Assembly: GCF_003334385.1 (NCBI RefSeq) | Contig: NZ_QOWN01000021.1 | Source: Escherichia coli | Lineage (GTDB): Bacteria > Pseudomonadota > Gammaproteobacteria > Enterobacterales > Enterobacteriaceae | Reading direction: 5' to 3' (one strand) | Length of the DNA: 64,000 nt | In this document: positions 26,611 to 27,399 of the stretch, in pieces | Layout of the letters: each line of letters begins with the position of its first letter | Position numbering within the stretch: the stretch's first letter is position 1 | Position numbers and translations under genes: made by a program | The notes under the pieces: model-generated | What the model was told of the DNA's origin: nothing | Database searches by the model: none | The model's input: only the letters and a program-made list of their open reading frames with translations

Positions 26611-27399
26611 ATGCTGGTTGCCGCAGGACAGTTTGCTGTTACATCTGTGTGGGAAAAGAACGCTGAGATTTGTGCCTCGTTGATGGCGCAGGCGGCGGAA
26701 AACGACGTATCGCTGTTTGTCCTGCCGGAAGCATTGCTGGCGCGCGATGATCATGATGCAGATCTATCGGTTAAATCAGCACAGCTGCTGGAAGGCGAAT
26801 TCCTCGGACGTTTACGGCGAGAAAGTAAACGTAACATGATGACGACAATTCTGACGATTCATGTTCCTTCAACGCCGGGGCGCGCATGGAATATGCTGGT
26901 GGCACTTCAGGCAGGAAACATCGTCGCCCGTTATGCCAAACTGCATCTCTATGATGCATTTGCCATTCAGGAATCACGCCGTGTTGATGCTGGTAATGAA
27001 ATCGCTCCGTTACTGGAGGTGGAAGGGATGAAGGTCGGTCTGATGACCTGTTATGACTTACGCTTTCCAGAGCTGGCGCTGGCACAGGCATTACAGGGAG
27101 CTGAAATCCTGGTACTTCCTGCCGCCTGGGTTCGCGGGCCGCTCAAAGAGCATCACTGGTCAACGTTGCTTGCCGCTCGTGCGCTGGATACCACCTGTTA
27201 TATGGTGGCGGCGGGGGAGTGCGGGAACAAAAATATCGGTCAAAGCCGGATTATAGATCCCTTTGGCGTCACCATTGCGGCAGCGTCAGAAATGCCTGCA
27301 CTCATTATGGCGGAAGTGACGCCCGAACGTGTGCGTCAGGTGCGCGCGCAACTGCCCGTCTTAAACAACCGTCGCTTTGCGCCGCCGCAATTATTATGA
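26611..27399 (+). CDS. ybeM: Nitrilase-superfamily C-N hydrolase (deaminated glutathione amidase-like), apparently intact here
   Basis: ATG 26611 preceded by AGGAGG (26600-26605); uninterrupted 262-codon frame. Confidence 0.8.

Follow-up and report, generated by a model that had tools for sequence, protein, structure and literature searches.

An apparently ancestral, intact ybeM gene, predicted to encode a Nit1-branch deaminated glutathione amidase, in a close relative of Escherichia coli K-12

Deaminated glutathione (dGSH) amidase activity has been assigned in published work to the Nit1 branch of the nitrilase superfamily (PMC7041631; PMC5714238), and Nit1 with this activity is described in a review as present in many bacteria (PMC7041631). 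The substrate arises when transaminases now and then deaminate glutathione to its 2-oxo acid form. The omega-amidases (such as mammalian Nit2, yeast Nit3, and E. coli YafV) are members of this superfamily too and have its catalytic triad, but their substrate according to the literature is 2-oxoglutaramate, which differs from the dGSH of the family that includes YbeM. Peracchi et al., writing in PNAS in 2017, are said to have shown dGSH amidase activity for E. coli homologues too. In the laboratory strain MG1655, ybeM is called a pseudogene in the literature and serves as a neutral insertion site (PMC7242477).

Here we examined the ybeM locus in a stretch of 64,000 nucleotides of E. coli DNA (hereafter the window). 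Our reading, which we hold with high confidence, is that positions 26611..27399 carry an intact ancestral ybeM encoding a Nit1-branch amidase that likely repairs dGSH, and that the gene was lost in K-12 and relatives by deletion of one G in codon 67. The gene, the pseudogene, and the function are all already known, and the locus shows nothing unusual: the gene is widely conserved in E. coli and stands here in its normal form. The features that define it in the window are as follows.

26611..27399, plus strand: intact ybeM coding sequence of 262 codons and a TGA stop (open reading frame and translation)
26600..26605, plus strand: Shine-Dalgarno AGGAGG, 5 nt 5' of the ybeM ATG (read from the sequence)
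26519..26610, unstranded: divergent crcB-ybeM intergenic region of 92 bp, next to crcB at 26135..26518 on the minus strand (gene positions)

The frame opens with the ATG at 26611, runs without an internal stop through 262 sense codons, and closes with the TGA at 27397-27399 (789 nt). The mechanical list of open reading frames (ORFs) lengthens it to 264 aa by starting at an in-frame GTG (26605), two codons 5' of the ATG; the 789-nt ATG form is the one annotated by RefSeq in the other strains examined. Considering that the chance expectation of a frame of 262 codons is about (61/64)^262 (roughly 3e-6), that the product matches both Pfam and NCBIfam models, and that at least 1000 public contigs from E. 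coli and Shigella encode the identical protein, this is not a chance ORF. The gene order is pagP-cspE-crcB-ybeM-tatE-lipA, with crcB on the minus strand and divergent from ybeM and lipA also on the minus strand, and the position of ybeM between divergent crcB and tatE agrees with the annotations of MG1655, NCTC86, UTI89, Eco889, and 027_SK3, identifying the gene as the positional ortholog. Several short ORFs of 40-106 aa overlap ybeM in other frames or on the opposite strand (for example, 26771..27091 on the minus strand), and no sign of being genes was found for these overlapping ORFs. Over-expression of out-of-frame sub-fragments of UTI89 ybeM, one of them encoding MFLQRRGAH, has been reported to cause filamentation, an effect that the authors considered non-physiological (PMC6206680). 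In the window, this peptide is the beginning of a +2-frame ORF at 26861..27031 within ybeM.

The protein belongs to the nitrilase superfamily over its full length: the Pfam CN_hydrolase model (PF00795) matches with an E-value of 9.4e-41, pairing residues 3-245 with model positions 2-255 of 256. At the level of individual families, the NCBIfam model NF033621, "deaminated glutathione amidase", gives 452 bits (5e-136, residues 3-261 against model positions 2-260 of 260), which is above its curated whole-protein cutoff of 355 bits, whereas the next-best NCBIfam family reaches 82 bits and all others remain far under their own cutoffs. All 262 residues are identical to the Swiss-Prot entry YBEM_ECO57, a UniRef representative named "Deaminated glutathione amidase" that also shares the gene context, and with no difference at the protein level the two are the same gene; RefSeq gives the exact protein the same name as Swiss-Prot does.

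Among solved structures searched with phmmer, the best relatives were Nit1-branch proteins, namely the Nit domain of C. elegans NitFhit (1ems, 105.5 bits) and yeast Nit2 (4h5u, 97.1 bits), followed at lower scores by the omega-amidases mouse Nit2 (2w1v, 82.5 bits) and yeast Nit3 (1f89, 75.3 bits), so that YbeM is nearer to the Nit1-branch than to the Nit2-branch proteins, by a modest margin. NitFhit and yeast Nit2 (4h5u, 4hgd) belong, like YbeM, to the C-N hydrolase fold family and have a Glu-Lys-Cys triad that aligns with its own, but they are distant relatives at these scores; YbeM lacks the Fhit fusion of NitFhit and is shorter than yeast Nit2, whose sequence carries insertions. In the phmmer alignment, Glu40, Lys110, and Cys147 of YbeM coincide with Glu54, Lys127, and Cys169 of 1ems, which we take to be the catalytic triad of that protein. 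The corresponding codons in the window are listed below.

26728..26730, plus strand: GAA codon of Glu40, catalytic glutamate (aligned with Glu54 of 1ems)
26938..26940, plus strand: AAA codon of Lys110, catalytic lysine (aligned with Lys127 of 1ems)
27049..27051, plus strand: TGT codon of Cys147, catalytic nucleophile (aligned with Cys169 of 1ems)

We infer the substrate and chemistry of the enzyme from its curated family and from what has been published on that family. YbeM would be a 262-residue cytosolic amidase of the Nit1 branch that hydrolyses dGSH at its amide bond, yielding 2-oxoglutarate and cysteinylglycine. The standard mechanism of the nitrilase superfamily is the most likely one: Cys147 would attack the amide carbonyl of dGSH, Cys-Gly would depart, and hydrolysis of the resulting thioester would free 2-oxoglutarate; Glu40 would act as the general base, and Lys110 would stabilise the oxyanion or tetrahedral intermediate. 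The physiological role predicted for the enzyme is most likely metabolite repair. Considering that nitrilase-superfamily members are hard to assign from sequence and that Nit1- and Nit2-branch structures both match strongly, an intact YbeM might have a physiological substrate other than dGSH: 2-oxoglutaramate, which would make it an omega-amidase resembling Nit2 and YafV, or some other amide or a nitrile. We regard this as improbable, given that NF033621 is matched well beyond its cutoff while NF007757, which we take to be the model of E. coli YafV-type amidohydrolases, scores only 58 bits (cutoff 249), that the best structural relatives are of the Nit1 branch, and that both Swiss-Prot and RefSeq use the name deaminated glutathione amidase.

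With dGSH amidase as the preferred assignment, we compared the gene with its K-12 counterpart. In MG1655 (NC_000913.3), the ortholog lies between the same neighbours and is annotated as the pseudogene ybeM (b4581, 658031..658818, 788 nt). Pairwise alignment with the window shows 785 of 788 aligned positions to be identical and three differences, at the following positions.

26810, plus strand: G at gene position 200 in codon 67, absent from MG1655, NCTC86, and 858 other complete genomes (alignments and deletion-junction probe)
26708, plus strand: V33A site, T in the window and C in K-12 (pairwise alignment)
26720, plus strand: V37A site, T in the window and C in K-12 (pairwise alignment)

The G at 26810 keeps the frame of the window open, and the window does not carry the K-12-type pseudogene allele. 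As a result of the deletion, the K-12 frame ends after 75 codons, at a stop that falls 3' of the catalytic Glu and 5' of the catalytic Lys and Cys; therefore, K-12 cannot make an active enzyme from this gene. Strains that lost this single G from codon 67, namely K-12 and a broader set of its near relatives, thus lack the enzyme. A first-pass annotation of the window had described an uninterrupted 262-codon frame with a strong AGGAGG, which the ORF, its translation, and direct reading of the sequence bear out, and had described MG1655 ybeM as a frameshifted pseudogene, which agrees with the b4581 annotation and the missing G at 26810. The alignment with MG1655 that it had proposed as a check is the one given here, and MG1655 proved neither identical to the window in this gene nor annotated as intact. 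We also considered whether the K-12 lesion might reflect programmed frameshifting or phase variation; both are unlikely, because the deleted G is not part of a homopolymer and no slippery heptamer occurs from codon 67 to the K-12 stop.

Positions 1..64000 of the window correspond to MG1655 631421 to about 695420, and the two are collinear; they differ by 22 SNPs and one indel (the ybeM G) over the 64 kb, for an identity of 99.96%. The IS5D element of K-12 (MG1655 687851..689045, between gltI and lnt) is absent from the window.

About 56428..56432: empty IS5D site between gltI and lnt, where two BLAST pieces overlap by a few bases

This overlap fits a target-site duplication. We further compared the window over 50 kb with 027_SK3, a wastewater isolate that is a near-best natural match. 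In the first 50 kb, 16 SNPs separate the window from MG1655, of which eight are K-12-derived (the window equals 027_SK3) and eight are private to the window with respect to both genomes (24531, 25386, 42102, 46316, 46555, 48699, 48735, and 49354); 027_SK3 itself differs from the window at 32 sites over the 50 kb. The private sites are unevenly placed, five of the eight clustering in a 3-kb djlB-ybeT-ybeU-djlC stretch (46316-49354). The annotation of 027_SK3 lists hscC (48705..49800 of the 027_SK3 sequence compared) as a pseudogene that contains an internal stop. Over the central 25 kb of the window, the score of full identity was reached by no complete E. coli genome, the best matches being an estimated 4 mismatches or so short of it.

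Because IS5D and the K-12-derived SNPs are absent and private SNPs are present, the source of the window is a close non-K-12 relative, and it would be one that never underwent the ybeM deletion. The collinearity and 99.96% identity with MG1655 might instead suggest a source that really is K-12, in which case the extra G would stem from an error in sequencing or assembly, or from a pseudogene repaired by engineering or spontaneously. Such an origin is hardly credible, considering that the G lies outside a homopolymer (context GGACGTTTACGG), that the identical 41-mer occurs exactly in 3631 complete genomes, and that both ybeM missense changes, the eight K-12-derived SNPs in 50 kb, and IS5D are all absent from the window. 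A revertant would retain these linked K-12 markers, and since none of them is there, we take a K-12 error or revertant to be excluded.

A non-K-12 relative is likewise what the first-pass annotation had proposed, namely a source K-12-like in gene order but not MG1655, and the identity, collinearity, 22 SNPs, single indel, and missing IS5D are in line with that proposal. It had also pointed to a TAG in ybeU, and this too was found.

48089..48796, plus strand: ybeU, with SNPs at 48699 and 48735

The A at 48735 (G in MG1655) changes codon 216 from TGG to TAG, removing the last 20 residues, and the SNP at 48699 gives A204V. A 41-mer centred on the amber codon had no megablast match in 5426 complete E. 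coli genomes, suggesting that the nonsense allele is private to the source of the window.

The same set of 5426 complete E. coli genomes was used to follow the two ybeM alleles, and the locus is present in 5425 of them. The intact 41-mer centred on the 26810 site is exact in the 3631 genomes mentioned above, and the remaining genomes match it at 95-99% identity in sensitive mode. Sampled non-exact matches are of two types, with either one substitution and no gap or a 40-nt span that represents the deletion. About 930 genomes carry one substitution without a gap in the 41-mer, for example Eco889, in which an intact 789-nt gene is annotated. The deletion was counted with the 40-mer across the MG1655 junction, a probe that cannot seed on intact alleles, and this matched 860 of the 5426 genomes; thus about 16% of the complete genomes carry the deletion and about 84% do not. 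Carriers include K-12 laboratory strains, NCTC86 (Escherich's strain, whose ybeM is flagged 'frameshifted' by PGAP), strain Sanji, and numerous isolates of clinical, animal, and water origin, many of the clinical and animal ones being nearly identical in their DNA at this locus. The frameshift is therefore not confined to K-12 and is common to natural isolates. Intact ybeM is also found in the B2 strain UTI89, in O157:H7, and in Shigella sonnei, and the intact allele is therefore ancestral by parsimony. It is the species norm and no special trait of the strain from which the window came, with K-12 being the exception.

Comparison of the window gene with that of UTI89 revealed 13 differences in 789 nt, 11 synonymous and 2 non-synonymous, which indicates purifying selection on a working gene. 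An open frame is not the same as a functional gene, and ybeM might be silent or heading for loss across E. coli: about 16% of complete genomes, successful natural lineages included, do without it, and mice, yeast, and Arabidopsis show no obvious phenotype when Nit1 is lost (PMC7041631). The promoter of ybeM presumably sits in the 92-bp crcB-ybeM spacer, but a consensus promoter and terminator scan of 26050-27850 gave counts that matched those expected from shuffling, and it placed no promoter-like site on the plus strand of the spacer. Against a silent gene stand the small number of non-synonymous changes between phylogroups A and B2, the conserved catalytic triad, the strong Shine-Dalgarno, the identity of the protein among O157:H7, Shigella sonnei, and the source of the window, and the altered expression of ybeM in transcriptome data from CFT073 (PMC5320621). 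Together these make a silent or decaying gene a poor prospect, and we infer that the intact allele is expressed. NsrR ChIP peaks between crcB and ybeM have been reported for both CFT073 and K-12 (PMC5320621).

An Rfam scan of the whole 64-kb window gave no match at or adjoining ybeM and no fluoride riboswitch upstream of crcB. The elements that it did identify in the window are those expected for E. coli.

25687..26129, plus strand: cspA-type thermoregulator over cspE (Rfam)
12593..12701, minus strand: rnk leader (Rfam)
55262..55424, minus strand: sroC (Rfam)
7287..7380, plus strand: STnc70 (Rfam)
63815..63998, minus strand: two tRNAs (Rfam)

The alleles also suggest an order for the decay of a gene that we read as working in its ancestral form. 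By alignment, the NCTC86 ybeM is the window allele minus one G; the haplotype of the window is therefore the exact one on which the deletion occurred. Val33 and Val37 are kept in the window, NCTC86, 027_SK3, and UTI89, and only 365 genomes, most of them derived from K-12, contain a 41-mer with both K-12 missense changes; these genomes would be nested inside the 860 with the deletion. It is likely that the deletion came first, in the wider lineage, and that V33A and V37A followed on the K-12 branch. These two changes (26708 and 26720) are two of the eight K-12-derived SNPs of the 50-kb comparison and lie within 13 bp of each other, both T to C and both Val to Ala, and two were observed where about 0.13 would be expected in a gene of 789 nt. 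Chance could account for their clustering, as could a clustered mutation event together with relaxed constraint.

A more speculative view, to which we give little credence, is that the 1-bp deletion is an old natural polymorphism whose spread was adaptive rather than neutral, for example because dropping dGSH repair is beneficial. If this were true, the polymorphism would be a natural experiment on whether a dGSH-repair enzyme matters in bacteria, and the strain of the window would represent a near-isogenic 'before' state at the ybeM locus.

What the present analysis adds to a known gene is that the K-12 frameshift is common to many natural isolates and that it likely predates the K-12-specific missense changes. 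The locus is thus a small, clean example of pseudogene decay, with the deletion in 860 of 5426 genomes apparently preceding two missense changes on the K-12 branch, and the intact ybeM confirms that the window is not K-12 despite 99.96% identity. It also means that work on the repair of glutathione damage in K-12 derivatives is work in a natural ybeM null background.
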